DNA of 64,000 nt from Woeseiaceae bacterium (lineage in GTDB: Bacteria > Pseudomonadota > Gammaproteobacteria > Steroidobacterales > Woeseiaceae), in contig JASJCH010000021.1 in NCBI GenBank assembly GCA_030066075.1, forward strand, positions 1,710-65,709, given 5' to 3'. This document shows positions 6,834-52,241 of this stretch, one piece after another. The translations under genes and the position numbers were made by a program. Position 1 is the stretch's first letter. Each line of letters starts with the position of its first letter. Below the pieces are notes generated by a model. That model was not told the DNA's origin. It did no database searches and worked only from the letters and a program-made list of their open reading frames with translations.

Positions 6834-7958
6834 ATGTCCGCGCTCGAGCTGTCCGACTATCGCCGCCTCGTTATCAAGGTTGGATCGTCGCTGCTGATTG
6901 GCGGCGACGACGCGGTGCATCGGGGCTGGCTCGAGGGCCTTGCCGATGACATCGCAAACCTGCAGCGGTCCGGGCACGAAATCCTGATCGTCTCCTCGGG
7001 CGCGATCGCGATCGGCAGCTCGGTGCTCGACATCGTTCGCAGCAGGGCGCGCCTCGAGCATCTGCAGGCTGCGGCCGCGGCCGGCCAGGTGCAGCTCGTG
7101 CACGCCTGGCAGGAAGCGCTGGGCCGTCACGGCATAGCCGCGGCCCAGGTGTTGCTGACGCCGGAAGACACCGAGAACCGGCGACGATTCCTGAACGCCC
7201 GCGGCACGCTCGCCAAGTTGCTCGAGCACGGCGTCGTTCCGGTGATCAACGAGAACGACACGGTGGCGACCGAGGAGATTCGCTATGGCGACAACGACCG
7301 CCTGGCTGCGCGCGTCGCGCAACTCGTGATGGCCGACGGGCTCGTATTGCTGTCGGACGTGGACGGCCTGTACACGGCGGATCCCGGTAAGGATGACCGG
7401 GCGGAGCACATAGCCGAAGTGCGCCGCATCGACGAGGACATTCTCGCGATCGCGGGCGAGACGCGTTCGGACATCGGCAGCGGCGGCATGGCGACGAAGG
7501 TGCAGGCGGCGCGCATCGCGACCCACGCGGGGTGCTCCACGATCGTCGCCAGCGGTAAGGTCGACCACCCGCTGGCCGTGCTGGCGGGCGGGGGTACCTG
7601 CACGGTGTTCCGCGCCGAGGGCACGCCGGCGGCTGCACGCAAACAGTGGCTGGCGGGCGCTCTGGATGTCCGCGGCGAGCTGCGGCTCGATGACGGCGCC
7701 GTTCGGGCTTTGCGCGCGGGCAAGAGCTTGCTGCCCGTGGGCATGGCAGAAGTGGTCGGGGCATTTCGCAGGGGTGACGTCGTGACCCTGGTGGACGCCG
7801 CGGGCAGGGAGCTGGGTCGTGGCCTCGCGGAGTACTCGGACGAGGAAGCGCGGCGGCTCGCGGGCCGCCAGTCGGAACAGATCGAGGAGCTGCTCGGTTA
7901 CCGTGGCAGTTCGGTCATGGTGCATCGCGACGATCTGGTACTGTTCGATCATGATTGA
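6834..7958 (+). CDS. proB: Glutamate 5-kinase with C-terminal PUA domain
   Basis: [43 protein letters not shown]; C-terminal PUA-like [17 protein letters not shown]. Confidence 0.92.
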
Positions 7959-9207
7959 AACCACCATGACGGCGATGGGCGAGGGCGCGCGCCGCGCGGC
8001 CCGGGCGCTCGCGATGACCGACAACGACACCCGCAACGCGGCGTTGGTCGCGGCCGCGGACGCCATCCGGCGCCGGCGTGGCGAGATCCTGGCGGCCAAC
8101 CGGGTGGACATGGACGAAGGCGCCGAGCGTGGCCTCAGCGGGGCGATGCTCGATCGTCTCATGCTCGACGACGACCGCGTGGAGGCGATGGCCTCCGGCA
8201 TCGAGACGGTCGCAGGCCTCGGCGACCCGTTGGGCAGGGTGCTGGCCGAGTGGGACCGTCCCAACGGCCTAGTCATCCAGCGGGTCAGTGTTCCGCTCGG
8301 CGTCATCGGCATCATTTACGAAAGCCGGCCCAACGTCACGGCGGACGCAGCCGCGCTGTGCCTGAAGTCGGGCAACGCGGCGATACTGCGCGGCGGCTCC
8401 GAGAGTTTCCATTCGAGCCAGGGCATCTACCAGTGCCTGCGCGAGGGATTGGTCGCGGCGGGTGTGGACGCCGACGCCGTGCAGATGGTCCCGACCACGG
8501 ACCGCGCAGCGGTCGGCTTCCTGCTGTCATCGATGGGCGACTCGATCGACGTGGTCGTGCCGCGCGGCGGCAAGAGCCTGATCAAGCGCGTGCAGGACGA
8601 GGCGCGCGTGCCGGTCATCGGTCACCTCGAGGGCATCTGCCACGTTTACCTGCACGAGCAGGCGGACACCGACATGGCGCGCGATATCGTGCTTAATGCC
8701 AAGATGCGCCGCACGGGCATCTGCGGCGCGTGCGAGACCGTGCTGGTCGACCGCGCGGCGGCCGGGCGCCTGTTGCCGGCCGTGGCGGGGGCGCTCATCG
8801 AGGCGGGTTGCGAAATTCGCGGCGACGCCGAGGTCTGCGAACGCGTGTCCGGAGCCATCGCGGCCACCGAAGAGGACTGGTCGACGGAGTATCTCGAAGC
8901 GGTCATCTCGATCCGCGTCGTTGACGATATCGAACAGGCGATCGCGCACATCGCCACTTACGGCTCGGGCCACACGGAGAGTATCGTCACGGCCGATGAC
9001 GCGGCAGCGCAGCGCTTCTTCGCGGCGGTGGACAGCGCCATCGTCCTGCAGAACGCGTCCACCCAGTTCGCCGATGGCGGTGAATTCGGCATGGGCGCCG
9101 AAATCGGCATCGCGACGGGCCGCATCCATGCGCGGGGGCCCGTCGGCGCAGACCAGCTCACGAGCTACAAGTATGTCGTTCGGGGCGCCGGCCAGACCCG
9201 GCCCTGA
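7951..9207 (+). CDS. proA: Gamma-glutamyl phosphate reductase
   Basis: [47 protein letters not shown]. The ATG at 7951 overlaps the proB stop (ATGATTGA). The 44-codon upstream extension in the ORF track lies inside proB. Confidence 0.9.
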
Positions 9208-10775
9208 TGCAACAGGATCGCGCCAGCTACGACGTCGCCGTTATCGGCGCCGGCATCAACGGCGCCGGCATTGCGCTGGACGCAGCGCTGCGCGGACTCA
9301 AGGTCATCGTGCTCGACCAGGACGACATGTGCAGCGGCACATCGGCGATCTCGAGCCGACTCATTCACGGCGGTCTGCGCTACCTGGAATACGCTGAGTT
9401 TCCCCTGGTCTTCGAATCGCTGCGCGAGCGCATCACGCTGCGGCGCATTGCGCCGCACCTGATCAGGCCGTTGCGGATCAATATCCCCGTCTATGCCACG
9501 GCACGTCGCGGCCCGCTGCTCATTCGCCTCGGCATGATCCTCTACGACCTGCTGTCGGTGGGCAAGACCGTGCCCGGGCACGACATGCTGGGACGCAAGC
9601 AGGCGATCGAGGCGGAACCCGGGCTGCAGCATGACGGGCTGCGCGCCATGGCCCGCTACTACGACGCGCAGGTGGAGTTCGCCGAGCGCTGGGTTCTCGA
9701 GATTTTGCTTGCGGCACGCGCAGCCGGCGCCGACGTGCGCACCCACAGCCGCGTCGAGCGGATAGTCATCGACGACGGCGCCGTTACCGGCCTGGAGTTC
9801 ACCGACCGGGTCACGGGCGAGCAGGGCGGCTGCAACGCCCGCGTGGTCGTCAACGCCGGCGGGCCCTGGGTGGACGAGGTGCTTGCGACGGCGAATACTG
9901 AGCCAACGCGATTCATCGGCGGCACCAAGGGTAGCCACATCGTCGTGGGCGCGTTCGAAGGTGCGCCCGATGATGCCTACTACGTCGAGGCAGCGGCCGA
10001 CGGCCGACCGTTCTTCATCATCCCCTGGAACGACCTGTACCTGGTCGGCACGACCGACATCCGCTATGACGGCGACCTGAACCACGTGCGCGCCAGCGCG
10101 GCCGAGGTCGATTACCTGCTCGCCGAGACCAACCGCGTGTTCCCGGCCGCGAACCTCACCCGGGCGAGCATCCACTTCGCCTATGCCGGGGTGCGGCCGC
10201 TGCCGCGGCGCGAGAAAGGTCCCGAAGGGGCCATTACGCGCAAGCACATCATCCGGCCAAACCGGGGCATCGCGAGCGGCCTGTTTTCGATCATCGGCGG
10301 CAAGCTGACCACCTACCGCAACCTCGCCGAGCAGGCCGTCGACCGGCTTGCGAAACCCCTTGGTCGCAAGCTGCCGGCTTGTCGCACGCAGAGCCTCAAG
10401 CTGCCCGGCGCCTATGGCCTGGATGAGGCTTCGGCGGCGCTGGCGGCAAGCGACGCGATCACATCGGCAGAGGCGCGGCGACTACTGCGCGTTTACGGTG
10501 GGCGCGCGGCAGACGTGCTCGCCCTGCTCGACGCAGAGCGACTGCCGCTCGTGGAGGCCGAGACGGTATTTGCGATTCGGCAGGAGTTCGCGCGGACGCT
10601 GACCGACATCGTGCATCGCAGGATGATGATCGGTCTCGACGCGGACCAGGGGCGGCCGCTGTACGGGCGAATTGCGGATGCGGCGGCGCTGGAGCTGGGT
10701 TGGAGTGAAGACCAGAAGTCCGCCCAGCTCGATGCGCTACGCGAGTACAGCGAGTCGTTGCGCGTCGCCCGTTAG
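9207..10775 (+). CDS. glpD: FAD-dependent glycerol-3-phosphate dehydrogenase
   Basis: YDVAVIGAGINGAGIALDAALRGLKVIVLDQDDMCSGTSAISSRLIHGGLRYLEY. The start overlaps the proA stop (TGATG). Confidence 0.85.
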   Translation: MQQDRASYDVAVIGAGINGAGIALDAALRGLKVIVLDQDDMCSGTSAISSRLIHGGLRYLEYAEFPLVFESLRERITLRRIAPHLIRPLRINIPVYATARRGPLLIRLGMILYDLLSVGKTVPGHDMLGRKQAIEAEPGLQHDGLRAMARYYDAQVEFAERWVLEILLAARAAGADVRTHSRVERIVIDDGAVTGLEFTDRVTGEQGGCNARVVVNAGGPWVDEVLATANTEPTRFIGGTKGSHIVVGAFEGAPDDAYYVEAAADGRPFFIIPWNDLYLVGTTDIRYDGDLNHVRASAAEVDYLLAETNRVFPAANLTRASIHFAYAGVRPLPRREKGPEGAITRKHIIRPNRGIASGLFSIIGGKLTTYRNLAEQAVDRLAKPLGRKLPACRTQSLKLPGAYGLDEASAALAASDAITSAEARRLLRVYGGRAADVLALLDAERLPLVEAETVFAIRQEFARTLTDIVHRRMMIGLDADQGRPLYGRIADAAALELGWSEDQKSAQLDALREYSESLRVAR

Positions 10776-12912: not shown

Positions 12913-15129
12913 GTGATGAAACCAGGAAATCTGTTCAGCGGCGCCTGCCGCGCCATCGTCCTGGCCTGCGTGCTCGCCACGGTGACAGCGCATGCCGAGC
13001 GACCGAAGATCGGTCTCGTGCTTGGCGGTGGTGGTGCGCGCGGCGCCGCGCACATCGGCGTGCTCAAGGAACTGGAGCGGCAGCGCGTGCCGATCGATGC
13101 CATAGCCGGCACCAGCATGGGTGCCATCGTGGGCGGCCTGTACGCATCCGGCATGACCCCGGAGGAACTCGAGGAACTGGTCACGACGCTCGACTGGGCG
13201 GCGTCGATGAGCGACACACCGTCGCGCGATCACCTGAGTTTTCGCCGCAAGCAGGACGACGAGCTCTACCCGATCACGGCAGAACTTGGCGTCAGCCGCG
13301 ACGGGCTCGCGCTGCCGCTGGGCGCTGTAAAGGGACAACGGCTTGACCTGCTGCTCCGTGAACTGACTATCGACGTCGCGCACATCGACGACTTCGACGA
13401 CCTGCCAATTCCGTTTCGGGCCGTTGCGACAAATATCGAGACCGGCAACGCGCACGTCATGGGCGAGGGCGACCTGGCGCAGGCAATCCGCGCCAGCATG
13501 TCGGTGCCCGCGATCTTCGCACCCGCCGAGATCGACGGTCACCTGTTCGTCGACGGCGGCATCGCCTCCAACCTGCCGATCGAAGTGATGCAGGCCATGG
13601 ACGTCGACATCATCATCGCCGTCGATGTCGAGTTTCCGCTTTACACGGCCGAGGAACTCGTTTCCGCGGTGGCTATCACTGAGCAGGTGGTCACGATCCT
13701 GATGCGGCGCGAAACGCTCAGGCAGATCGAGCGGCTCGGCGACGACGACATCCTGATTCGGCCGGCGCTCGGTACGTTCGACTCGGGTGCTTTCGAAAGA
13801 ACACCGGAGACCATTGAACCGGGCGTGCAGGCCGCGCTCGACGTCGCCGACCGGCTTGCCGGGGTTGCGCTCGACGAGGCGGAGTTCGCACGACATCTTG
13901 CTGCGCGGGATGTCCCGCCGCCTATCGACACCCGGCTGGCATTCGTACGCGTGGTGGATGATGGGCCGATTTCGGGGCGCATGCTCGAATCGCACCTCGA
14001 TGTCACGGTGGGCGACCGCGTGGACACCGCGCAGCTGTCGGCCGCGGCCCAGGACCTCTATGGCCTCAACCTGCATGAACAGGTCAGCTATCGCCTTGTC
14101 GAGGAGGACGGCAGCACCGGTGTCATCTTCGATGCGCAGAGCAAGAGCTACGGGCCCAACATCCTGAAGTTCGCGGTCTCGCTCGAAAACGACTTCGAGG
14201 GGTCGACATCGTTCAATATCGGTACGCGCTGGCGCCGGATCGGCATCAATTCCCGGGGGGCGGAGTGGCAGACCGACCTGCAGCTCGGTACGGACCCGCG
14301 CCTCGTATCCGAGTTCTACCAGCCGTTCCGTGCGGGCTCGGCCCCGTTCGTCGCGCCGCGCATCGACCTCGGCCAGCGCAACCTGAATGCTTTCATTGGC
14401 GAAGATGCGGTTGCGCGTTACCGCATCTCGGAGTCAGAAGCCGGCCTCGATCTCGGCGCCGAGGTCGGTTCCATCGGCGAGTTCCGACTGGGGGCGTATC
14501 GCGGCTTCGGCAAGGCGCGCGTCAAGGTCGGCGACCCCGCTCTGCCCAATGTCGAATTCGACACGGGCGGCGTGCTGGCGCGACTGCGCTTCGATACCCG
14601 GGACGATGCCCGGTTCCCGCGCAGCGGCATTCTCGCCGACGTGCGCTGGAACGCGTCGTTACCGGACCTCGGCGCCGATGAGCGTTACGACACGGTCGAG
14701 ACCGCAATCGAGGGCACCTGGAGCCGCGGCAAGAACAGCCTGCAGCTCGGCGCACTGTTCGCGACCACGCTGGATTCGCAGGATGCGATCCAGGACCTGT
14801 TCACGCTCGGCGGTTTCCTGCGGCTGTCGGGGCTCGAGCGCGGCGAGATCAGCGGGCCACACGCGGCGCTGGCCCGGCTCGTCTACTACCGGCGGGTCAG
14901 CGAATCGACAGGCGGCATTTTCGACGTCCCGATTTACCTGGGTGCGTCGCTCGAAACCGGCAATACCTGGAGCGATCGGGGGGACATCAGTTTCGACTCG
15001 GCGCTGGTCAACGGCGGCCTGTTCGCAGGCTTCGATACGCCCATCGGCCCGGTCTACCTGGGCGCGGGTATTGCCGAGGGCGGTCGCAGCAACTACTACC
15101 TGTTCTTCGGTACGCCGCGGGGTCGCTAG
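12913..15129 (+). CDS. Patatin-like phospholipase fused to a POTRA/Omp85-type beta-barrel (PlpD-like, type Vd autotransporter architecture)
   Basis: Signal peptide; oxyanion GGGGARG; lipase GTSMG; catalytic-Asp motif FVDGGIASNLP; C-terminal barrel ending ...SNYYLFFGTPRGR. The start is GTG 12913 or ATG 12916. Confidence 0.85.
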   Translation: MMKPGNLFSGACRAIVLACVLATVTAHAERPKIGLVLGGGGARGAAHIGVLKELERQRVPIDAIAGTSMGAIVGGLYASGMTPEELEELVTTLDWAASMSDTPSRDHLSFRRKQDDELYPITAELGVSRDGLALPLGAVKGQRLDLLLRELTIDVAHIDDFDDLPIPFRAVATNIETGNAHVMGEGDLAQAIRASMSVPAIFAPAEIDGHLFVDGGIASNLPIEVMQAMDVDIIIAVDVEFPLYTAEELVSAVAITEQVVTILMRRETLRQIERLGDDDILIRPALGTFDSGAFERTPETIEPGVQAALDVADRLAGVALDEAEFARHLAARDVPPPIDTRLAFVRVVDDGPISGRMLESHLDVTVGDRVDTAQLSAAAQDLYGLNLHEQVSYRLVEEDGSTGVIFDAQSKSYGPNILKFAVSLENDFEGSTSFNIGTRWRRIGINSRGAEWQTDLQLGTDPRLVSEFYQPFRAGSAPFVAPRIDLGQRNLNAFIGEDAVARYRISESEAGLDLGAEVGSIGEFRLGAYRGFGKARVKVGDPALPNVEFDTGGVLARLRFDTRDDARFPRSGILADVRWNASLPDLGADERYDTVETAIEGTWSRGKNSLQLGALFATTLDSQDAIQDLFTLGGFLRLSGLERGEISGPHAALARLVYYRRVSESTGGIFDVPIYLGASLETGNTWSDRGDISFDSALVNGGLFAGFDTPIGPVYLGAGIAEGGRSNYYLFFGTPRGR

Positions 15130-15131
15130 GT

Positions 15132-15380
15132 TCAGCGGACGATTTTCTCGAGCACCTGGGTCGGCGTATCGGTCTTGCGATAGTAGCCGTGGCGTATCGC
15201 CATCCGCTCGAAGGCGGCGTCGCGCTCGGCCTCAGTCGGATACCAGTGCAGCTTTTCCCAGTCGTCGCCCAGGACCTTGCGGAGCGTGTCGCCCGGGGGC
15301 AGGGTCACGCGAATGCCCCAGTTGCGTTCCGCCCCGGCCTTGCTCGGATCTACCAGGTTATGTTGGTGGCAATAGTCCAT
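15132..15380 (-). CDS. Small hypothetical protein (~82 aa)
   Basis: Only the C-terminal part of ORF 15132..15593 has coding-like composition (MDYCHQHNLVDPSKAGAERNWGIRVTLPPGD...WYPTEAERDAAFERMAIRHGYYRK). No family recognised, no clear SD, start uncertain. Confidence 0.45.
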   Translation of the reverse strand: MDYCHQHNLVDPSKAGAERNWGIRVTLPPGDTLRKVLGDDWEKLHWYPTEAERDAAFERMAIRHGYYRKTDTPTQVLEKIVR

Positions 15381-15510
15381 GGCGCGCGAGTATACCGGAA
15401 CGGCGGCGGAGTGCTCCACGTTTGCCGCTGCTGCCCGCGGCACGCGCGTTTTCCGCCAAACAGGTCCTTTTTGAGCGACCCGGATTCCGTCATTGTGGGA
15501 GAATATGACG

Positions 15511-18500
15511 ATGGCTGGTAATTCGGACGAACGATCGCCCGGCGGAGAGCGCGCCGGGCTCGATGCGACAGGCGAGTTCTTCAGTGTAGGCACGCCGTTG
15601 CACGCCGTGCGCGCCGGTTACATCCGCCGCGGCGCCGACGATGTCCTGTACGAGACCGTCGTGTCCGGCCGCTACGCGCACGTGATCGCACCCGATCGCA
15701 GCGGCAAGTCCAGCCTGGTCGCGGCGATCGCGGCGCGCCTCGAAAATAACGGCTTCAAGGTCGCCATCCTCGACCTCGAGCAAATCGGCGTGCGCGATGC
15801 CGGCAGTGATGCCGGGCGCTGGTACTACAGTGTCGCCTACCGCTTGCTGCGGCAGCTGCGCATCCGCGTCGACCTGCAGAGCTGGTGGCAGGACAAGTCG
15901 ATCCTGAGCAACCGGCAGCGGCTCGTGGAGTTCTACTCGGAAGTGCTGCTGCGCAACGTGCACGAACGCATCGTCGTCTTTGTCGACGAGATCCAGTGCA
16001 CCGAAGACCTGCCCTTTGCCGACCAGCTGCTCGCGAGCATTCGCGCGGCTCATAACGCCCGCGCCACCGACCCGGAGTTCTCGCGCCTGACCTTCGTGCT
16101 GCTCGGCGAGTGCGACCCGCTCAACCTCATCGACGAACCCGAGCTCTCGCCGTTCAATATCACCCAGGCCGTCGCACTTCCCGATTTCACTCGACCGGAC
16201 CTCGATTTGTTCGCGACCGAGCTGAACCTGCCGCCGGAGAAAGCGGCGGCCGCGCTCGATCGTGTGTACTTCTGGACGGCCGGGCAGCCGTACCTGTCGC
16301 AGAAACTGGCGCGTGCGATCGCGCGTGACGTGATGGACGGCGACGTCGTCGAGGACGTCGACCGCCTGGCCATGCGGCAGCTCGCGGGTCGGTCGGCGCT
16401 ACACAACGAACCGCAGCTGAGTCACATCCACCGCCAGGTCCTGAACGACAGGCGCCGCTGTGAACCGCTGCTGAACCTCTACGGCCGAATACGCAAGGGC
16501 CTGGAGGTGCCTGCGGATCTGGGTTCGCCGCTGCATCGGCGGCTGATCGCAATCGGCCTGATCGTCATCGACGAGGAGGGTAATCTCGCGGTACGCAACC
16601 GCGTTTATGCCGCAGTGTTCACGGCGCGCTGGGCCAACGAGAACCTGCCGACCCACTGGCGAACACCGGCGATTGCCGCGGCGATCATACTCGCGATCGT
16701 TGCGCTGCCGTTCTGGTACACGCAGCTCTTGCCGCGCTCCTACGTCGACTTGCTGACTTCCGACACGGTCGAACTGCAGGTGGCCGCCGATGCCTATGCC
16801 AACCTGCGGTCGTTCCCGGGTCACGCCGAAACCGCCGACAGCCTGTTCAGGTCGTTCCTGCAGAATCGCGCCCTGCTGGCAGCGACGGGGGGCGAGATCG
16901 ACGCCATTGCCGAGTTGTCCGGGTCCCTGCCCGACGCGGGTCGGCTCCCCGAGGAACTCCGCGCAGGCTTCTGGGACAAGCAGGCCCGCGACGCCCGGCG
17001 CGAGGAGCGTCGCGATGATGCACTGCTGGCCTCGATCCAGTCGCTCGTGCTGTCGACGCCGCAGCGTCGCAGCCAGGCGGCGATGTTCGTCGCGGATGAC
17101 TACCCGTTGCTGCGCGCCAGCCTGCCGGGTCACTCCGGCGGCAGTCTCGTTTTCGACCCCGAGAACCTGTTGCTCACGGCCGTCGATGCCGCGCAGGTTT
17201 CGCAGTGGTCCCTCGATGCGAACGGCGTGCAAAGCCGCGACAGCTGGCCAATTACGGCGCTGGAGGTCACGCCACTCGTGCGTCGCGTGATCGTCGATCG
17301 CGAGGGCGCCGTGGCCCGTGTCGGCTTAACAATCAACCTCAGCCATGCGCGGGCTTCCGACCTGCGCATCAAGGTCATCGCGCCGTCGGGACGCGCGATC
17401 GAAATCGATCCGGGCATCGATCGGGCATCGGTTAACGAGGACATTCGCATCCCGGCCGCGCAGCTCCGGGACCTCATCGGCGAGCCGCTGCCGGGAACCT
17501 GGAGCCTCAGCGTCCGTGACGAGGAGCTGGGCGTCGCCGGCCGGCTGGTCGGCTGGAACCTGAACCTGAATTCGCAGGGCCTCGTCGAGGATTTCCAGAG
17601 AGGATTGAACATCGCGGACCCGGTCGAGCGGGAGACCGACAATCTCTGGGTGAGCGAGGATGGCCGCCACGCCGTGGCGCGCGCCATGCAGAGCGACAGC
17701 GCGCGCGTTTGGGACCTGGCGTTCGCGACGCCGGTGCGAGCCGTAGCGGTCAATGAACTCGAGCAGGTGATCGGGCTGAGCGCGGGCGCAAAGTACCTGG
17801 TAACGGCCACCCAGGACTTCGTGCACCTTTGGGATACCGCGACCGGTCGGCGCAGCTCCATGCTGCCGATTGGAGCCGCCAGCGCGTCCGCCGTGCTGAC
17901 CGACGACCGGGCGCATCTTTTCGTCCAGCGGCGCACGGACGCCGACACCACGTTCGAACTATGGTCTCTGGACGTCGGCGACGTCGTCGCCCGCCTCGAA
18001 GTGGCCGGCACGCCCGCGCTCGTGTCGCTGGACGCCAGTGGCCAGCGGGTCGCGATTGCCGACTACGATCGTGCGGTTCGCGTGTGGGATCTGCGAACCG
18101 GCGAGCTCATCGTGCAGATCGACCTCGAGGCGCAGCCCAGTGCGCTCAGCCTGGCCTATGGCGGCGAGGTGCTCGGCGCCGTGTTCGGCACGGCGGGCGT
18201 GTCGATGTGGCGCATCGACGCACCGACGCGGCCACTGCTGGAGGAATTCGCCGAGGGCAGTTGGCAGCTACAGTTTTCATCGTCCGGGGCCCGGGCGCTG
18301 GTGGGCCGCGCCGAGCGTGGCTTCCAGGTGTACGACACGGCCCAGGGGCGCTTGCTGGGACCGCCGCTCGGGGCCAGTGCGCCGGGCGATGTCGCGGGTC
18401 TGATCGGCTTCAGCGCCGACGAACAGCTGGTGGTCACCGGGAGCTCGGAATCCGGTGTCCGATTCTGGCAGGTGCCGAACCTCGACGAGTCGGCAGAGAG

Positions 18501-19533
18501 CGATTTTGCGCGTTCAATCTGGATGCCTTCGGGAGATTCGGTCGCCGTGGCCACGCCCGATGCGTCGCGCATCATTATTGGCGACCAGAACGGCAACGTG
18601 CATGTCATTCCGGCCGATGCGGGCCGCGACGGTCTGCTGCAGCGCGCGCAGGAACTCAGTTTCTTCGGCCACAGCGCCGAGGTGCGGCACGTCGCAGTCA
18701 GCGCCGACGGCCAGCTCGCAGCCAGCGCGGCTGACGACAACACGTTGCGCATCTGGAGTGTCGAAGACGGGCTGCCGAGGCCATTCATCGCCGAGATCGA
18801 CGGCGTCGGGGTCGAGCGGCTGGCCTTCGAGCCCAATGGTCAGCGGCTCGGCATTCTTACGCCGGGCAGCGTACGTATCCTCGCTACCGACACTGGTGAA
18901 CAGCTGGCCAGGTTCGACCTCGGAGAGCCGCATGGCTCCATCAGCTTTGCGGACAACGGGCGCGTCTATATCGGCAGCGACTCGGGCGCGCTGCGTGCCG
19001 TCGGCGTCGATGCGACAGGAACCTGGACCATGCAGACCCTGTGGCAGAGCGACACCGGCATTCGCTGGCTGGAGGCGGCGCCGCGATCGCGTTATCTCGT
19101 TCTTGTTGACCAGGCCAATGTCGCGCAGCAATTCGATCTCGAAGAGGCGCGCATCGGGGATGCGGCGCTGACTTTGCCTGGCGACGTCGACGAAGTCGCT
19201 TTCACGCCGGGCGGACTGCGCGTGTTGTTCCGCACCCCCAACTGGGTCCATCGAGCGAGTTCGTCAGGCACCGGGCTGGTCTGGCTCGATGCCATCCTCG
19301 TACCGAAAGCGCTCGCCAGTGCGCGCATGGTATTCGGCGACCCGCGTGTCGATCAGAGTGCTGCGCTCGGCAATCATTTTTACCTGCCGGTCGCGGCAGA
19401 CGGTTACCCGCGGCTGGCCGAACTCAACTTCTCGGCAGCCCACGCTCACGGGCTATTCGGCAACAAGGAGCAGTTGCTCGAAGAATGGCAGCGCCGGTTA
19501 GCGATCGTCCCCGCGCAAGGTCCGGACGAGTAG
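15511..19533 (+). CDS. Large single-pass membrane protein: N-terminal P-loop ATPase (AAA-like/STAND-like), one TM helix, then a proprotein-convertase-type P-domain and WD40-like repeats
   Basis: Walker A APDRSGKSS (~15688-15714). Walker B IVVFVDEIQ (~15969-15995). WTAGQPYLSQ helical/winged-helix segment. Hydrophobic helix AIAAAIILAIVALPFWY (~16660-16715). P-domain-like LTINLSHARASDLRIKVIAPSGR...PLPGTWSLSVRDEE..GRLVGWNLNL (~17280-17575). Repeats with VRVWDL, VRFWQV, LRIWSV, HLWD (~17600-19250). GGGAGA lies 8 nt before the ATG at 15511; the ORF track starts at TTG 15493. Confidence 0.8.
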   Translation: MAGNSDERSPGGERAGLDATGEFFSVGTPLHAVRAGYIRRGADDVLYETVVSGRYAHVIAPDRSGKSSLVAAIAARLENNGFKVAILDLEQIGVRDAGSDAGRWYYSVAYRLLRQLRIRVDLQSWWQDKSILSNRQRLVEFYSEVLLRNVHERIVVFVDEIQCTEDLPFADQLLASIRAAHNARATDPEFSRLTFVLLGECDPLNLIDEPELSPFNITQAVALPDFTRPDLDLFATELNLPPEKAAAALDRVYFWTAGQPYLSQKLARAIARDVMDGDVVEDVDRLAMRQLAGRSALHNEPQLSHIHRQVLNDRRRCEPLLNLYGRIRKGLEVPADLGSPLHRRLIAIGLIVIDEEGNLAVRNRVYAAVFTARWANENLPTHWRTPAIAAAIILAIVALPFWYTQLLPRSYVDLLTSDTVELQVAADAYANLRSFPGHAETADSLFRSFLQNRALLAATGGEIDAIAELSGSLPDAGRLPEELRAGFWDKQARDARREERRDDALLASIQSLVLSTPQRRSQAAMFVADDYPLLRASLPGHSGGSLVFDPENLLLTAVDAAQVSQWSLDANGVQSRDSWPITALEVTPLVRRVIVDREGAVARVGLTINLSHARASDLRIKVIAPSGRAIEIDPGIDRASVNEDIRIPAAQLRDLIGEPLPGTWSLSVRDEELGVAGRLVGWNLNLNSQGLVEDFQRGLNIADPVERETDNLWVSEDGRHAVARAMQSDSARVWDLAFATPVRAVAVNELEQVIGLSAGAKYLVTATQDFVHLWDTATGRRSSMLPIGAASASAVLTDDRAHLFVQRRTDADTTFELWSLDVGDVVARLEVAGTPALVSLDASGQRVAIADYDRAVRVWDLRTGELIVQIDLEAQPSALSLAYGGEVLGAVFGTAGVSMWRIDAPTRPLLEEFAEGSWQLQFSSSGARALVGRAERGFQVYDTAQGRLLGPPLGASAPGDVAGLIGFSADEQLVVTGSSESGVRFWQVPNLDESAESDFARSIWMPSGDSVAVATPDASRIIIGDQNGNVHVIPADAGRDGLLQRAQELSFFGHSAEVRHVAVSADGQLAASAADDNTLRIWSVEDGLPRPFIAEIDGVGVERLAFEPNGQRLGILTPGSVRILATDTGEQLARFDLGEPHGSISFADNGRVYIGSDSGALRAVGVDATGTWTMQTLWQSDTGIRWLEAAPRSRYLVLVDQANVAQQFDLEEARIGDAALTLPGDVDEVAFTPGGLRVLFRTPNWVHRASSSGTGLVWLDAILVPKALASARMVFGDPRVDQSAALGNHFYLPVAADGYPRLAELNFSAAHAHGLFGNKEQLLEEWQRRLAIVPAQGPDE

Positions 19534-21381
19534 TTCCAGGCGCGCCGCCGTCACTTCTTTCGCCGGCACCGGCTCGCCAACACGTACGGTGACGCGCTGA
19601 AACAGGCGCCCCGGAATCGTGCGCAGGCCGCCGCTCTTGCGGCGGCTGAACCAGCTACCCCAGAGGTTGCCGAGCGACACCGGAACGACCGGCACCGGTC
19701 GCGTGGCGATGATGCGTTCAATCCCCGGGCGAAAGCGCTGGATCTCGCCGTCGCGCGTGATGCCGCCCTCCGGGAATATGCAGACGACATTGCCGGCGGC
19801 CAGTTCTTCGTCGACGCGTTGGAACGCCTCCTCCATGAGCTGCTCGTCCTCCATCTTGCCGGCGATCGGTATGGCCCGCATGTGTTCGAAGAAAAAGCGC
19901 ATCAAGGGCATCTGGAAGATGCGGTAATACATGACAAATCGCATCCGCCTGCGAATGCAGCCCGTCAGCAGGATCGGGTCCATGTAGCTGACATGATTGC
20001 AGACGACGATGGCGGGGCCCTTGCGCGGCACGTTTTCGATACCGGTCGGGCGCAGCCGATACAGCACGTTGATCAATACCCACGCGAGGAAGCGCATCAT
20101 GAACTCGGGGAGCAGTGAGTAGATGTAGACGGCGACTAGCGCGTTGAGGCCGGCAACGACGAGAAACAGCTCCGGGATCGACAGGCCGATCTGCAGCAAT
20201 GCGATGGCCATGATCGATGCGACGACCATGAAGATCGCGTTGATGATGTTGTTGGCTGCGATGATGCGCGACAGGTGCTCACGCTTCGAGCGCCGCTGGA
20301 TCAGCGCATACAGCGGGACGCTGTAAAAGGCGCCGAACGCGCCGAGCAGGGCGAGATCAGTGAGTATGTTCCAGCTACCGGGGCGTTGCAGGAACGCGCT
20401 GACGTCCGCGGCGGCACTCGCTGCCGGCAGCGGTTGCACAAAATACAGGTCGATGGCGAACAGGGTGAGGCCAATGGAGCCGAACGGTACGAGGCCGAGT
20501 TCGATGCGGCGCCCGGACATGCGTTCGCACAGCAGCGAGCCGATGCCGACGCCGACAGCGAACGCGACGAGCAGGATGACGCTGACCGCCTCGTTGCCAT
20601 TGAGAACGTCAAGCGTGTAGGCGGGCATCTGCAGCGTCATCGCGGTGCCAAAGAACCAGAACCACGAAATGCCGAGGATCGACAGGAACACCGTCCGGTC
20701 CTCGCGTGCGTATCCGACGATGCGCCAGGTCTCTCTCCAGGCATTCAGGCTGATCGTGAGGTCCGGGTCGACGGCGCGGGTCACCGGGATCTGGCGGCTG
20801 GTCATATACCCGAGTAGCGCAAGACCGACGAGCAGGGCTGCCAGCAGTGTGTGCTTCGTCGGGTCGATATCGACGGCCATGCCGCCAATGATCAGCCCGA
20901 GGATGATGGCGACATAGGTGCCGGCCTCGACCAGCGCGTTGCCGCCGATCAGCTCCTCGGTCGCCAGCTGTTGCGGGAGGTAGGCGTACTTCACGGGTCC
21001 GAATAGCGTTGACTGGAACCCCATCAGGAACAGCACGCCGAGCAGCGTTGCATAGGCCTGTGTCAACAACGCGACCGCCGCGATGGACATCAGCGCGACC
21101 TCCAGCAACTTGATGCGCCGCATCAGCATGGACTTTTCGTACTTGTCGGCGATCTGCCCGGCTGTTGCCGAGAACAGGAAATACGGCAGGATGAACAGCG
21201 CGCCGGCGACATTGGCGAGCTGGCTGTGGTTCATGTTCAGCACGACGACGCCCTGGAACGTGATCAGGATGACGAGGCCGTTACGAAAAACGTTGTCGTT
21301 CAGGGCGCCGAGGAACTGAGTGCCGAAGAACGGCGCAAAGCGGCGCTGTGCGAGTAACGAAAACTGGCCTGGTTCGTTCAA
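19498..21381 (-). CDS. MFS transporter (LplT-like lysophospholipid transporter) fused to a PlsC-type acyltransferase
   Basis: About 12 TM segments in the N-terminal ~420 aa. The C-terminal domain has the acyltransferase HX4D motif (CNHVSYMDP) and FPEGGITRDG. Confidence 0.85.
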   Translation of the reverse strand: MNEPGQFSLLAQRRFAPFFGTQFLGALNDNVFRNGLVILITFQGVVVLNMNHSQLANVAGALFILPYFLFSATAGQIADKYEKSMLMRRIKLLEVALMSIAAVALLTQAYATLLGVLFLMGFQSTLFGPVKYAYLPQQLATEELIGGNALVEAGTYVAIILGLIIGGMAVDIDPTKHTLLAALLVGLALLGYMTSRQIPVTRAVDPDLTISLNAWRETWRIVGYAREDRTVFLSILGISWFWFFGTAMTLQMPAYTLDVLNGNEAVSVILLVAFAVGVGIGSLLCERMSGRRIELGLVPFGSIGLTLFAIDLYFVQPLPAASAAADVSAFLQRPGSWNILTDLALLGAFGAFYSVPLYALIQRRSKREHLSRIIAANNIINAIFMVVASIMAIALLQIGLSIPELFLVVAGLNALVAVYIYSLLPEFMMRFLAWVLINVLYRLRPTGIENVPRKGPAIVVCNHVSYMDPILLTGCIRRRMRFVMYYRIFQMPLMRFFFEHMRAIPIAGKMEDEQLMEEAFQRVDEELAAGNVVCIFPEGGITRDGEIQRFRPGIERIIATRPVPVVPVSLGNLWGSWFSRRKSGGLRTIPGRLFQRVTVRVGEPVPAKEVTAARLELLVRTLRGDDR

Positions 21382-21512: not shown

Positions 21513-22124
21513 ATGAACTTACGCCTTACATCGTTGGTGTGCGGACTGGCCGTGCTTTGTGGGTGCGCCGAGGAGGTGCCGCCGCCGTCCGTACACGACT
21601 ATCTCGCCGATCCTATCGCGCTCGAGGCCGCGGTCGTGCGCTGCGCGGCAAACCGGTCCGAGACGCGCTACGACGCCGAGTGCGTCAACGCCCGTCAGGC
21701 TGTTTCGATCATCGAGGCGCGCAAGGAACGTGAGCGCCGAGAGGCCTTCGAGGCGGAGTCCGCGGCCAAGCGGGCTGCCCTGCGGCGCACGCAACAAGCC
21801 GCCGCCGAGGCGCGGCGTCGTGCCGAGGAAGCCGAGCAGCGGCGCCGCGAGGCGGCATACCTGGCGCAGTTCGGCGAACTGCCGCCTGCCGGGGACGACG
21901 AGGCTGTGGAGGACGAAACCGCGGTCAACGCGCCGGGCGCCGTGTTGCCGCCAGCGCCTGAGGAACCGTCCACGCCTCCTGCACGGGTGGCGCCCACGGC
22001 TCCTCCACAGGAAGCTCCCGCGGTCGATGGTGGTAATGCCCCGGTCGTCGATACCGAGCCGCCGGCAGACCTCGACGCGGTGCGCGAAGAGCTGCGCCGC
22101 CGTAACGAAGAGAGCGGTAACTAG
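21513..22124 (+). CDS. Lipoprotein with an EexN-family-like N-terminal domain and a low-complexity Ala/Arg/Glu then Pro-rich tail
   Basis: Lipobox LAVLCGC. SVHDYLADPIALEAAVVRCAANRSETRYDAECVNARQAV resembles the two-Cys core of EexN-type lipoproteins (from memory, not searched). Confidence 0.6.
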   Translation: MNLRLTSLVCGLAVLCGCAEEVPPPSVHDYLADPIALEAAVVRCAANRSETRYDAECVNARQAVSIIEARKERERREAFEAESAAKRAALRRTQQAAAEARRRAEEAEQRRREAAYLAQFGELPPAGDDEAVEDETAVNAPGAVLPPAPEEPSTPPARVAPTAPPQEAPAVDGGNAPVVDTEPPADLDAVREELRRRNEESGN

Positions 22125-29199: not shown

Positions 29200-31068
29200 T
29201 TGCTCGGACGCGGTGCCATTATTGCTGCGCTATGCCTGTTACTCCTGGGTCTCGCGCTACCGGCGCAAGCGGCGAAGGACGATCCTGAGCCGATAGTCGT
29301 CGAGGACCCGCATTACGGCGAGGTCCTGTTCTACTTCTACCAGGATGATTACTTCCCGGCGATCGTGCGGCTGCTCGCCGCGCAGGAGCAGAACCAGCTG
29401 GACGACCACGAACAGCAGGCGGAGCTGCTGCTGGGCGGCCTGTACCTGTCCTACGGGCATCACCTCGAGGCGGCGGAAATATTCGAGCGCCTGCTTGCCG
29501 ATAACGTCAACGAGGAAATCCGGGACCGCACCTGGTTCTTCCTGGCGAAGATCTGGCTGCAGCGCGGCTATATCGACAAAGCCCAGGACGCTTTGTCCAA
29601 CCTGAGCGAAGATCTGCCCAAGAATCTGTGGCGCGAAGCGCAGATGCTGCAGTCACAGATCTATATCAACAGCGGCCAGTATGAGCAGGCGATCGAGTTG
29701 CTGGGCAATTGGAAGGGCCGTACCGAGTGGTCGCGCTACGCGAAGTTCAATCTCGGTGTCGCGTTGGTTCGCAGCGGCAATGTCGAGGCCGCGAAAGAGA
29801 TCCTGAGCGAGCTCGGCGAAATCGACCCTTACAACGACGAACTGACCGCAATCCGTGACAAGGCCAACCTCGCCCTCGGCTACGCGCTGCTGCAGGATGG
29901 CCAGCCGCAGGCCGCGAAAGTACCGCTGCAACGCGTGCGCCTAGACGGCCCTTTTTCCAACAAGGCGTTGCTCGGAGTGGGCTGGGCCGACGCCGAGGTC
30001 AATAATTACCGTCGCGCCCTGGCGCCCTGGATGGAGTTGCGCGGTCGCGACGTTCTCGACCCGGCCGTTCAGGAGTCCATGCTGGCCATTCCGTACGCGC
30101 TGGCCAAGCTGGACGCCGTAAGCCAGGCCGCCGATCACTACCTGAACGCGATCGAGGCTTTCTACGAGGAAACCAATCGGATCGACCGGATGATCGGCCT
30201 GATCGAGTCCGGCAAGATTTTCGATTTCTTCCTCGACGAGGATCCTCTCGGCACGACCGGCTGGTACTGGCGTCTCGAAGCGCTGCCGGAAGGTCCCGAG
30301 GCACGCTACCTCTACTTGATGCTTGCGTCCCACGAGTTCCAGGAAGGCCTCAAGAACTACCGCGACCTGCATTACCTGAACCGCAATCTCGATAGCTGGC
30401 GGGGCAGCATCGACGTGTTCGCGAACATGCTCGAAACGCGCAAGGAGGCTTACGACGAGCGCCTGCCGCGTATCGAGGACGCGCTGGCGCGGGCCGATAT
30501 TGACGAACTCGTGCAACGCAAGTTCGAGTTCGATTCCGAGCTCGACCGGATAGAGCGCGAATTCGACTGGCTCGCGTTCGCCAACGAGCGCGAGTTCGAG
30601 AACTGGAGCGAGATATCCGAGTTCGCCTCGAACCCGGCACTGAACGCCGACATTCCCGAGGCGGCCGAGGTCCGCGAAAAGGTGGAGTTGCTCCAGGGCG
30701 TCCTGCAGTGGGAACTGGAGAAGCAGTTCAAAGACCGGCTCTGGCGCGCCCGTCGTGACGTGCGTGAAACCGGCGAATCGCTCGTCGAGGCCCAGCGCGC
30801 GCGACGCCAGATCGATGACACGATGCGCGACGAAGCGCTGCGGTTCGAGGACTTCAGCAATCGCGTCTATGGTCTTGGCCCGAAAATCGACGACATGCAG
30901 CTGCAAGTTGCCGAGGCGATGGGCAGCCAGCGCGCCTTCCTGCAGTCGATCGCGGTCGGTGAGTTGCAGGCACAGAAACAGCGCCTCGACGTCTACACGG
31001 TGCAGGCGCGCTTCGCGCTTGCGGCCATCTACGACCTTGCTGCCTCGACGGGGAGCGGGGACGAATGA
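29200..31068 (+). CDS. Exported TPR plus coiled-coil protein
   Basis: TTG start 3 nt after the upstream stop; signal peptide ...LALPAQA; TPR-like helices in the N-terminal half; long Glu/Arg-rich coiled coil in the C-terminal half. Confidence 0.75.
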   Translation: MLGRGAIIAALCLLLLGLALPAQAAKDDPEPIVVEDPHYGEVLFYFYQDDYFPAIVRLLAAQEQNQLDDHEQQAELLLGGLYLSYGHHLEAAEIFERLLADNVNEEIRDRTWFFLAKIWLQRGYIDKAQDALSNLSEDLPKNLWREAQMLQSQIYINSGQYEQAIELLGNWKGRTEWSRYAKFNLGVALVRSGNVEAAKEILSELGEIDPYNDELTAIRDKANLALGYALLQDGQPQAAKVPLQRVRLDGPFSNKALLGVGWADAEVNNYRRALAPWMELRGRDVLDPAVQESMLAIPYALAKLDAVSQAADHYLNAIEAFYEETNRIDRMIGLIESGKIFDFFLDEDPLGTTGWYWRLEALPEGPEARYLYLMLASHEFQEGLKNYRDLHYLNRNLDSWRGSIDVFANMLETRKEAYDERLPRIEDALARADIDELVQRKFEFDSELDRIEREFDWLAFANEREFENWSEISEFASNPALNADIPEAAEVREKVELLQGVLQWELEKQFKDRLWRARRDVRETGESLVEAQRARRQIDDTMRDEALRFEDFSNRVYGLGPKIDDMQLQVAEAMGSQRAFLQSIAVGELQAQKQRLDVYTVQARFALAAIYDLAASTGSGDE

Positions 31069-51700: not shown

Positions 51701-52241
51701 GCGCCGCGCGGTCGCCATCCAGATGATCATTTCGCGCGAGCTCGGGCTGAACTTCTGCGAGAACCCGTGGCAGGGTTCCTTCATCATCAACGAGCTCACC
51801 GACCTGGTCGAGGAAGCTGTCTACCAGGAATTCGAGCGCATCTCCGACCGTGGCGGCGTGCTTGGCGCTATGGATACGATGTACCAGCGCGGCAAGATCC
51901 AGGAGGAGAGCATGTACTACGAGCACAAGAAGCACGACGGCTCGCTGCCCCTGATTGGCGTCAACACGTTCCTGCCCAAGGAAGGCCAGGAGGACGAGGT
52001 GCACGAGCTCGAACTGATTCGTTCCAGCGAGGAGGAGAAACAGGACCAGATCCGCCACGTGCGCGGCTTCCAGGGCACGCATGCCGAGGAGAGCGGCCCG
52101 GCAATCGAGCGCTTACAAGCGGTGGCCCGTGATCGCGGCAACGTGTTCGAGGAACTGATGCAGACCGTGAAGTCTAATTCCCTCGGGCAGATCTCCAACG
52201 CCCTTTACGACGTCGGCGGCGAGTACCGCCGCAACATGTAG
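48798..52241 (+). CDS. icmF: Fused isobutyryl-CoA mutase IcmF (B12-binding domain + MeaB-type GTPase + mutase catalytic domain)
   Basis: N-terminal B12 domain [13 protein letters not shown]...VSSYQGGH. G-protein [26 protein letters not shown]. Large C-terminal mutase barrel. 1147 aa. Confidence 0.88.

Follow-up and report, generated by a model that had tools for sequence, protein, structure and literature searches.

An AAA_35 ATPase of Woeseiaceae joined by one predicted transmembrane helix to a P-domain and a double WD40 propeller

NTPases of the STAND and Orc-like types are regarded as switches that work inside the cell, with the sensor in the NTPase's own compartment. Can such an NTPase also be the inner end of a protein whose sensor lies outside the cytoplasmic membrane? 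This question is raised by a gene in a 64,000-nucleotide stretch of DNA (the window) from a Woeseiaceae bacterium (GenBank assembly GCA_030066075.1, contig JASJCH010000021.1, positions 1,710 to 65,709 of the forward strand). Its product, together with thousands of relatives, is predicted to place the sensor across the membrane from the NTPase. According to a preliminary description of the locus, one protein of 1340 amino acids (aa) carries a P-loop ATPase, a helical or winged-helix region, one hydrophobic helix, a P-domain and WD40 repeats, and all of these features are present.

15511-19533, plus strand: the whole gene (AAA_35, transmembrane helix, helical bundle, P-domain, double WD40 propeller; 1340 aa), from the open reading frame (ORF) and its translation

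The open frame at 15511-19533 (plus strand) consists of 1340 codons and is followed by a stop. The longest ORF at the locus begins at a TTG (15493) upstream of the ATG at 15511. The methionine encoded by this ATG is invariant across an alignment of 19 diverse homologues, and an identical protein with the same start (ATG 15511) is annotated in NCBI assembly GCA_029979885.1 (contig JARPNM010000709.1).

Domain architecture and predicted topology

The N-terminal part of the protein is an ATPase of the Pfam family AAA_35 (PF14516), which is matched by aa 37-367 over profile positions 13-326 of 331 (E-value (E) 1.2e-22; score 80.7 bits, cutoff 27). AAA_35, P_proprotein and WD40 had been named in advance as the Pfam matches to be expected, and all three are found above their curated cutoffs.

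15619-16230, plus strand: nucleotide-binding alpha/beta domain of the AAA_35 module (aa ~37-240), predicted to be cytoplasmic, from Pfam, Foldseek and an AlphaFold2 (AF2) model with predicted local distance difference test scores (pLDDT) mostly above 90
15688-15714, plus strand: Walker A, APDRSGKSS (aa 60-68), from conservation in 115 homologues
15973-15990, plus strand: Walker B, VVFVDE (aa 155-160), from conservation in homologues
16234-16641, plus strand: helical lid and winged-helix-like alpha/beta unit (aa ~242-377), from AF2 secondary structure, conservation and Foldseek

Both Walker motifs had been recognized in the preliminary description, and both are conserved. Walker A follows the pattern A60-x4-G65-K66-S67, and residues A60, P61, G65, K66 and S68 occur in 115 of 115 full-length homologues, as does the Walker B aspartate D159; the adjacent glutamate E160 is found in 106 of the 115. 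Across 48 distant representatives the aspartate is invariant and the glutamate is at least 90% conserved. The NTPase is probably catalytically competent. In the lid, residues W255, G258 and P260 of the motif W255-x2-G258-Q-P260 are invariant down to 28% sequence identity.

Two AF2 models, both built on alignments of homologues, were evaluated. The first (aa 1-700, mean pLDDT 85) shows the nucleotide-binding domain at aa ~41-240, the lid at 242-330 (helices 242-328) and the winged-helix-like unit at 340-377 (helix 340-348, strands 351-353 and 358-361, helix 364-377). These are followed by a long helix (384-416), a six-helix bundle (422-526), four strands (545-575) and a beta-sandwich (589-688). 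When the ATPase was compared to the PDB with Foldseek, the best match was archaeal PABY2304 (2qen; E 1.8e-9, TM-score 0.67 over the target), followed by SSO1545 (2fna), by Orc1/Cdc6 proteins (2qby, 1w5s, 1fnn) and then by STANDs (EfAvs5, NOD2, SAMD9, Roq1, RPP1). The alignments to 2qen, Orc1/Cdc6 and NLRs extend over ~370-400 columns. The STANDs thus rank behind the archaeal ATPases and Orc1/Cdc6 in structural similarity. At the sequence level, a PDB search with the ATPase part returned P-loop-level matches to RecA only; a PDB profile search returned the same RecA matches for the ATPase and, in addition, matches for the P-domain. No match to Pfam NACHT, NB-ARC or nSTAND was found in the window protein.

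At the level of the fold, the earlier assignment as a STAND-like ATPase is borne out by the Foldseek comparison. Several features of the STAND class are present, namely conserved Walker A and B motifs, a tripartite core with G-x-P in the lid, and a C-terminal repeat sensor in the same polypeptide, this sensor being predicted on the opposite side of the membrane from the NTPase. An effector or adaptor domain was found in the protein neither by Pfam nor in the AF2 model; the model is of low confidence for aa 1-22, and AAA_35 is matched from aa 37 onwards. KAP-family P-loop NTPases are defined by transmembrane helices inserted in the P-loop domain. In the window protein the sole hydrophobic helix (aa 387-406) comes after the winged-helix unit, which sets the protein apart from KAP NTPases, and the KAP family is not among the best 25 of 34 Pfam matches.

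16669-16728, plus strand: single predicted transmembrane helix (aa 387-406, AIAAAIILAIVALPFWYTQL), from Kyte-Doolittle hydropathy, conservation, flank charge and AF2

In a Kyte-Doolittle scan with 19-residue segments, no segment but this helix reaches 1.6 (its peak is 1.97, at aa 388-406); the runner-up has 1.38 and the N-terminus of the protein is not hydrophobic. The peak is found in all 115 orthologues with a mean of 2.09. Within the helix, A, V, I and L replace one another freely in these orthologues, between conserved flanks (RWANENLP..W and PFWYTQLLP); this pattern fits a lipid-facing helix with interfacial belts. The unbroken helix 384-416 of the AF2 model spans the hydrophobic segment. 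On a crude Hessa-scale sum the helix has +1.96 kcal/mol, which is marginal, and is far ahead of the next segment with +5.85 kcal/mol.

The orientation can be predicted from charge and from cysteine content. In the 115 orthologues, lysine and arginine are about twice as frequent on the N-side as on the C-side flank, as the positive-inside rule has it for a cytoplasmic N-terminus. Among diverse representatives of at least 700 aa (50% cluster level), the ATPase is directly followed by a peak of 1.6 or more in 83 of 124; among these 83, the N flank is the more basic one in 63 cases and the C flank in 12, and cysteines number 1.00 per 100 aa N-terminal to the helix versus 0.32 per 100 aa C-terminal to it. 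The orthologues have a mean of 0.017 cysteines in the C-terminal part of ~930 aa versus 2.3 in the N-terminal part of 385 aa. P-domains are otherwise known as a feature of secreted proteases. Because the ATPase must face the cytoplasm and there is a single span, the bundle, the P-domain and the propellers are predicted to be periplasmic. We thus predict a bitopic protein with the N-terminus inside and the C-terminus outside, one span and no signal peptide. The earlier proposal that the ATPase lies inside and the P-domain and propellers outside is upheld as far as sequence statistics and models reach.

16759-17088, plus strand: juxtamembrane helical bundle (aa ~417-526), predicted to be periplasmic, of no known family, from AF2 and conservation
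17143-17265, plus strand: beta unit ahead of the P-domain (aa ~545-585), from strands in both AF2 models
17275-17574, plus strand: proprotein-convertase-type P-domain, a beta-sandwich (aa ~589-688) without a protease, from Pfam, a PDB profile and Foldseek
17608-19440, plus strand: WD40 propellers in tandem (aa ~700-1310), with ~13 blades of four strands each after the P-domain, from Pfam, a PDB match, AF2 and Foldseek

The juxtamembrane bundle is modelled as helices 422-434, 439-456, 460-470, 479-497, 501-513 and 517-526 (pLDDT ~88-94). No Pfam match covers it. Its residues P436, G437, W488 and R501 are invariant in distant homologues. The beta unit consists of strands 545-549, 554-559, 562-569 and 572-575 in both AF2 models. 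As one beta unit precedes the P-domain in the order of strands, it is possibly one blade of the first propeller, into which the P-domain would then be inserted.

The P-domain is recognized by Pfam P_proprotein (PF01483; aa 602-686, E 8.7e-12, 45.4 bits against a cutoff of 21). Its profile matches the Aeromonas sobria serine protease (E 3e-6) and furin (E 0.006) in the PDB, and Foldseek matches it to 3hjr, 3wqb and 1p8j. Residues H612, P625, G627, G662, W664 and D670 are invariant. The domain had been described as having no protease attached, and indeed neither peptidase S8 nor any other peptidase is among the best 25 of the 34 Pfam matches; it is preceded by the helical bundle and the beta unit. 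Since an S8 domain is lacking from these matches, the window protein is, by its sequence, not a proprotein convertase.

The WD40 region is matched by Pfam PF00400 (50.1 bits against a cutoff of 27) and by many beta-propeller models over aa ~726-1210, and it matches the Nostoc protein of PDB entry 2ymu in sequence (E 1e-60). The second AF2 model (aa 536-1340; pLDDT 87.6, predicted template modelling score 0.80) is all-beta with a short C-terminal helix. Foldseek retrieved tandem double propellers, namely Pwp2/Utp proteins, 2ymu, Apaf-1 and Aip1. It may be added that aa 407-1340 of the window protein (16729-19530) contain no cysteine, while its 385-residue predicted cytoplasmic part has three.

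Distribution, neighbouring genes and evolutionary pace

For the window protein, 969 homologues are detectable. Almost all of the top 120 are 1335-1347 aa long and essentially full length, with 60-90% sequence identity and the same set of Pfam domains; where a name is given, it is "AAA-like domain-containing protein" from metagenome-assembled genomes (MAGs) of Woeseiaceae or Gammaproteobacteria. A relative is encoded in 280 genomes among the GTDB species representatives, which were scanned with the closer alignment (A3) as query. The best 80 loci were kept and the other 200 genomes left out; these 80 are all of Woeseiaceae type (MAGs labelled Woeseiaceae, Woeseia or with broader gammaproteobacterial names) and show 53-85% identity, nearly all with full-length coverage. 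Among them, MAGs of Woeseia sp. (L075, L080) have orthologues with 53-54% identity. The features described above cannot have arisen by chance, as more than 100 protein clusters and 80 genomes of species representatives contain full-length homologues with 53-90% identity.

When the profile of the 19-sequence alignment (A2) was used as query, most of the proteins retrieved were fragmentary ones from Woeseiaceae, and distant ones were few. With aa 1-700 as query, 1.84 billion cluster representatives yielded 8196 matches, 3713 of them at E 1e-30 or better. Many of these are proteins of 1300-1400 aa that align over ATPase, helix, bundle and P-domain down to ~30% identity; others have ATPase and helix alone in common and differ in their C-termini. 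The 48 distant representatives all carry AAA_35, and 30 of them carry WD40. The layout of AAA_35 and one hydrophobic helix after it, in many cases with WD40, is, by these matches, that of thousands of protein clusters; it is neither rare nor unique. Named distant members with the full architecture are from MAGs of Chromatiales, Pseudomonadota and Woeseiaceae, and none of them has been characterized.

The statement that no characterized member of this family is known holds for Pfam, NCBIfam, PADLOC, PDB sequences and the literature searched. In that literature, the matches to AAA_35 or PF14516 were irrelevant, mostly strings such as "AAA35", and PF14516 was absent from the papers among the matches listed. 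Two large STAND surveys (Aravind-type; Nature 2026) mention neither AAA_35 nor a layout of a transmembrane helix followed by WD40, a 2017 survey of prokaryotic WD40 proteins discusses neither NTPase heads nor a periplasmic location, and a Woeseiales genomics paper does not mention the gene. Thus, we found no description of the architecture AAA_35, transmembrane helix, bundle, P-domain and WD40 in the literature searched.

Gene contexts were compared over 88 loci, including four distant ones (L085-L088) from the relatives P0311, P0326, P0169 and P0231. In each locus the gene occurs once, at a fixed core-chromosome position, which is kept even in orthologues of 31-33% identity (L087, L088). The conserved block reads proB - proA - glpD - (TonB receptor) - (patatin/Omp85) - 82-aa gene (minus strand) - (kinase-like gene, minus strand) - ATPase gene on the upstream side and, on the downstream side, ATPase gene - (LplT/Aas, minus strand) - lipoprotein-like gene of ~200 aa - (MscS) - Ysc84 - M48 - LemA - ApbE. 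The immediate neighbours in the window had been correctly noted beforehand.

12913-15129, plus strand: PlpD-like outer-membrane phospholipase with patatin and Omp85 domains (Pfam Patatin E 8e-38, Omp85 E 3e-6)
15132-15380, minus strand: gene for a conserved soluble protein of 82 aa, divergent from the ATPase gene, of no known family, from translation, homologues and tblastn
19498-21381, minus strand: convergent gene for a major facilitator superfamily (MFS) protein fused to an acyltransferase, LplT/Aas-like (Pfam MFS_1 and Acyltransferase)

For the product of the 82-aa gene, 1032 homologues were found, and 97 among the top 120 have a length of exactly 82 aa; it has no Pfam match above threshold and no NCBIfam match. 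By tblastn the gene lies upstream on the opposite strand in 74 of the 82 loci with enough flanking sequence, including the distant L085 and L086, and it also occurs at L087 with 49% identity, where an 86-aa gene is called. As an alternative for the small neighbour, an ORF on the plus strand (15189-15521) was dismissed, as it has no Pfam match and the conservation is on the minus strand. A sigma-70-like promoter was not found in the divergent intergenic region, which is uninformative.

In 72 of the 88 loci a small divergent gene for a kinase-like protein of 188-223 aa is located between the 82-aa gene and the ATPase gene. It matches NCBIfam PRK09188 (E 1e-71) and PRK12274 (E 4e-63), "serine/threonine protein kinase", and is Bud32/RIO/Kdo-kinase-like. 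It is found on the minus strand at L001:7308-7961, L002:7243-7914, L086:571-1239, L087:7214-7780 and L088:7215-7880, has the catalytic-loop motif HNDLAKEPN and shows ~50% identity even between the most distant loci. In the window it is absent between 15380 and 15511 and from the whole 64 kb; the lineage of the window (L003-L005, L007, L016, L018, L024 and others) has lost it from this position.

The patatin gene is upstream in 53 of the 60 loci with enough flank and is absent beside the distant orthologues L085-L088. It has a weak likeness to NCBIfam models of CBASS and of anti-phage phospholipases, far below their cutoffs. The LplT/Aas-like gene (NCBIfam acyl-[ACP]--phospholipid O-acyltransferase, E 1e-159) lies downstream of the ATPase gene at 73 of 75 loci; L088 retains it, and L085, L086 and L087 lack it. 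In the window, its 3' end overlaps that of the ATPase gene by 36 nt (19498-19533), so that no intrinsic terminator is possible between the two genes; end-to-end overlaps are also called in L002 (4 nt) and L088 (7 nt), and L001 has a gap of 33 nt instead. Patatin and LplT/Aas are, as far as the compared loci tell, lineage-specific neighbours, syntenic only inside Woeseiaceae. A link through a lipid-turnover operon was set aside, since patatin is missing beside all four distant orthologues and LplT/Aas beside three of them. The 82-aa gene and, usually, the kinase-like gene are more constant. Accordingly, of the two genes that had been proposed for a co-occurrence check, the 82-aa gene accompanies the ATPase gene also in distant loci while the PlpD-like gene does not.

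Evolutionary pace was measured as the median identity to the window protein across loci, for each segment or neighbour. The values are 73% for the ATPase, 56% for linker and bundle, 75% for the P-domain, 56% for propeller 1 and 44% for propeller 2. They compare to 64% for GlpD, 59% for M48, 71% for Ysc84, 72% for LplT/Aas and 71% for the 82-aa protein. The gene evolves at about the pace of its housekeeping neighbours, and the distal propeller is more plastic. A PADLOC scan of the protein gave one marginal match (mad8, E 0.0015), which covers aa 52-99 and thus the P-loop/Walker A region only, and an NCBIfam scan gave only noise below threshold. The flanks contain ordinary metabolic and envelope genes, and genes of mobile elements or defence islands were not observed in them. 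The marks of anti-phage STANDs, namely a match to a defence model, an effector or adaptor domain, a variable island context and a patchy distribution, were not found here. As its pace matches that of the neighbours, its position is fixed, an effector domain is lacking and the PADLOC match is marginal, the gene looks like an envelope gene of housekeeping type that Woeseiaceae and related Gammaproteobacteria inherit vertically, and not like a mobile defence system.

Several further observations concern the distant loci. The orthologue at L085:1321-5249 is called as two consecutive ORFs (698 aa with AAA_35 and P-domain, then 602 aa with WD40), as is that at L086:1362-5181 (1026 aa, then 261 aa). 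These loci are metagenomic and the genes may be truly split or may reflect a frameshift or assembly error. L086 has, in addition to the full-length AAA_35 gene, a second copy of the ectodomain without ATPase nearby (7622-10653, minus strand), which is split over two genes (490 aa with P_proprotein, 526 aa with WD40) and adjoins two MscS genes. In a Woeseiaceae MAG (GCA_045110335.1), the orthologue (L088:8001-11939) has only ~31% overall identity and a faint WD40 region that Pfam barely detects, and its neighbours are 44-50% identical to those of the window. Either the taxon label spans a very deep divergence or the ectodomain drifts far.

Elsewhere in the window, 21513-22124 (plus strand) codes for a 203-aa protein that is a conserved neighbour in 67 related loci; it has no Pfam domain and its N-terminus matches the EexN-family lipoprotein model NCBIfam NF033894 above cutoff (E 8e-11). 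Two large TPR proteins of 622 and 940 aa are encoded side by side at 29200-33887 (plus strand), and the latter, which has YfiO/BamD-like and Slam-type TPR matches, may be another envelope-associated scaffold. The 1147-aa protein encoded at 48798-52241 (plus strand) fuses B12-binding, MeaB-type GTPase and methylmalonyl-CoA-mutase catalytic domains, which is the architecture of an IcmF-like fused acyl-CoA mutase.

A possible receptor-type NTPase and the alternatives

We lean, with modest confidence, towards the view that the protein is a bitopic receptor-type NTPase of the inner membrane which couples binding in the periplasm to the nucleotide state or oligomerization in the cytoplasm. The AAA_35 module (the N-terminal 380 residues) would stay in the cytoplasm, where ATP is present, the helix at aa 387-406 would cross the inner membrane, and the following ~930 residues would reside in the periplasm. 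There, propellers and P-domain would bind a partner in the envelope or periplasm, and the cytoplasmic module would switch or oligomerize according to its nucleotide state. Signalling from outside to inside is slightly favoured over the reverse direction; in this case, external binding would free the NTPase to oligomerize and to engage cytoplasmic partners. Candidate output partners are the 82-aa protein and, in most relatives, the small Bud32/RIO-like Ser/Thr kinase; both are candidates because of their conserved adjacency only.

A number of points weigh against a receptor-type NTPase. The helix is rich in alanine and its crude Hessa sum is slightly positive, so that membrane insertion is plausible and not certain. 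When the predicted ectodomains of distant relatives do contain cysteines, their number is not preferentially even (43%). The protein has no cytoplasmic output domain and any signal output is conjecture. Since the closest structures to the ATPase are uncharacterized archaeal ATPases and Orc1/Cdc6 and not bona fide STAND receptors, a STAND-like switch is an analogy. As the kinase-like gene is missing from the window and from about a dozen related loci, its product cannot be an obligate partner encoded in cis. Finally, the genomes with conserved neighbours are all related, and descent and functional linkage are inseparable among them.

The main rival, with which the absence of an output domain is compatible, is a flow of energy in the other direction, where ATP hydrolysis would drive work in the periplasm through the transmembrane helix and the bundle, by which an envelope complex held by the propellers would be remodelled or assembled. 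Cytoplasmic NTP energy would reach an ATP-free compartment by a logic like that of FtsEX, MacB/LolCDE and TssM of the type VI secretion system. The retained Walker B glutamate (E160) suggests that hydrolysis is probably kept beyond mere binding, the bundle is strongly conserved and continuous with the transmembrane helix, and the neighbourhood is rich in envelope genes (outer-membrane phospholipase, LplT/Aas, lipoprotein, MscS, M48/LemA), although this may be mere inherited synteny. However, one helix per protomer is a weak transmitter of force unless the protein oligomerizes, and the relatives by fold (Orc1/Cdc6, STAND, PABY2304) are switches or initiators and not motors. TssM provides a precedent as an inner-membrane NTPase reported to have a large periplasmic domain (PMC3346141). 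On balance, we regard such an inside-out mechanotransducer as rather doubtful.

We consider it improbable that the helix does not span the membrane at all and that the protein is a soluble or peripheral AAA_35-WD40 protein, with the helix serving oligomerization or monotopic anchoring. The modest hydrophobicity of the alanine-rich helix in the window orthologue (1.97 on the Kyte-Doolittle scale, +1.96 kcal/mol on the Hessa scale) would fit this, and canonical WD40 repeats of the GH/WD type are classically cytoplasmic. But the segment is hydrophobic in every orthologue, exchanges A, V, I and L and lies between conserved aromatic and charged belts, and most distant AAA_35 relatives have such a segment in the corresponding position, with Kyte-Doolittle values up to ~3.0. 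The charge bias and the threefold depletion of cysteine on the C-terminal side fit export, and the P-domain is otherwise a module of secreted proteins. Moreover, periplasmic WD40 arrays have been predicted for many bacterial kinases (PMC11032199).

Least of all do we expect a conflict- or defence-type STAND sensor, the propellers of which would detect a molecule of an invader or competitor in the periplasm and set off a protective or suicidal response: the STAND-like order of NTPase and repeat sensor, the Foldseek matches to Avs5, NOD2, SAMD9 and plant NLRs, the fast-evolving propeller 2, the weak similarity of the adjoining patatin to anti-phage models and the proposal of transmembrane STAND-type targets of diversity-generating retroelements (DGRs) with periplasmic sensors (PMC10907252) speak for it, but the marginal PADLOC match to the P-loop, the missing effector domain, the single copy per locus at a fixed core position between housekeeping genes across deep divergence, the conservation of ATPase and P-domain at or above that of GlpD and M48 and the flanks in which mobile-element or defence-island genes were not seen speak against it, and the conflict-type switch of the preliminary description is therefore not supported.

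If the predicted placement of the sensor across the membrane holds, nucleotide-dependent oligomerization would be, besides histidine kinases, Hanks kinases and anti-sigma factors, one more general way in which Gram-negative bacteria signal across the membrane or couple ATP energy to the periplasm. Tentatively, and with the reservation that it may well prove wrong, this can be generalized: AAA_35 with a transmembrane helix after the ATPase might define an unrecognized and very large class of bacterial "receptor NTPases", single-pass proteins whose WD40/P-domain ectodomains would sense envelope or extracellular cues and which would signal by nucleotide-driven oligomerization of the STAND/Orc-like module. 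They would parallel receptor kinases, their role would be in envelope homeostasis and not in immunity, and in Woeseiaceae the output might pass through the 82-aa protein and the Bud32/RIO-like kinase.

Woeseiaceae are reported to make up 1-22% of the 16S rRNA sequences from marine sediments (PMC7082342). As the gene is a conserved core gene of Woeseiaceae, what it does matters for understanding the cell envelope in a group that is abundant worldwide and difficult to cultivate. No new fold, new chemistry or new defence system is revealed. An ecologically dominant group thus harbours members of a very large and conserved family that has not been studied. What has been observed is the domain composition, the conservation of motifs, the kinship by fold, the synteny and the rates of evolution, whereas the topology, the direction of coupling, the partners and the biological role, like every step beyond the anatomy, are inferred.

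Comparison with known systems

The closest family by sequence is AAA_35 itself. The window protein matches the family model above its gathering threshold, and so do all 48 distant representatives. AAA_35 exists as a sequence model only, with no member of assigned function, and neither its Pfam name and description line nor the literature searched mentions a membrane helix after the domain, a periplasmic bundle or a P-domain.

By structure, PABY2304 (2qen), SSO1545 (2fna) and Orc1/Cdc6 are the best matches to aa ~30-380, with the P-loop domain, the helical lid and the C-terminal winged helix in common. An upstream motif (R40-x2-D43-x2-L46) and the G-x-P of the lid are of a kind that we take to be present in this group as well. 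In contrast to the window protein, these proteins are soluble, ~350-400 aa long and devoid of a transmembrane helix and ectodomain, the identity is only 12-17%, and none of them came up when the PDB was searched by sequence.

Apaf-1 and bacterial Avs, bNACHT and nSTAND proteins show the same order of NTPase, helical and winged-helix region and tandem WD40 double propeller. The window protein differs from STAND NTPases with WD40 in having a transmembrane helix between NTPase and sensor and no N-terminal effector or adaptor, in lacking a Pfam match to NACHT, NB-ARC or nSTAND and a defence-island context, and in being inherited as a core gene. In furin and in the Aeromonas sobria protease ASP, the P-domain follows and stabilizes the S8 catalytic domain, whereas in the window protein it comes without a protease, between the beta unit and the WD40 propellers.

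The topology has its closest parallel in single-pass Ser/Thr kinases of Planctomycetota with predicted periplasmic WD40 or TPR arrays (PMC11032199). They have the same layout of a nucleotide-using cytoplasmic head, one transmembrane helix and a long, predicted periplasmic repeat array, but their head is a Hanks kinase, they have neither the P-domain nor a conserved juxtamembrane bundle, and they belong to other bacterial lineages. STAND-type DGR targets with sensor domains predicted to be periplasmic have also been reported (PMC10907252). In the light of these kinases and DGR targets, the topology alone is not unprecedented, and the earlier statement that known STANDs with sensor arrays are soluble was too general. 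The idea of a cytoplasmic head, one helix and a periplasmic repeat array is thus already known for kinases; the new element, as predicted here, is that a STAND/Orc-like NTPase forms the cytoplasmic head of such a single-pass receptor, whose periplasmic ectodomain contains WD40 propellers and a P-domain.

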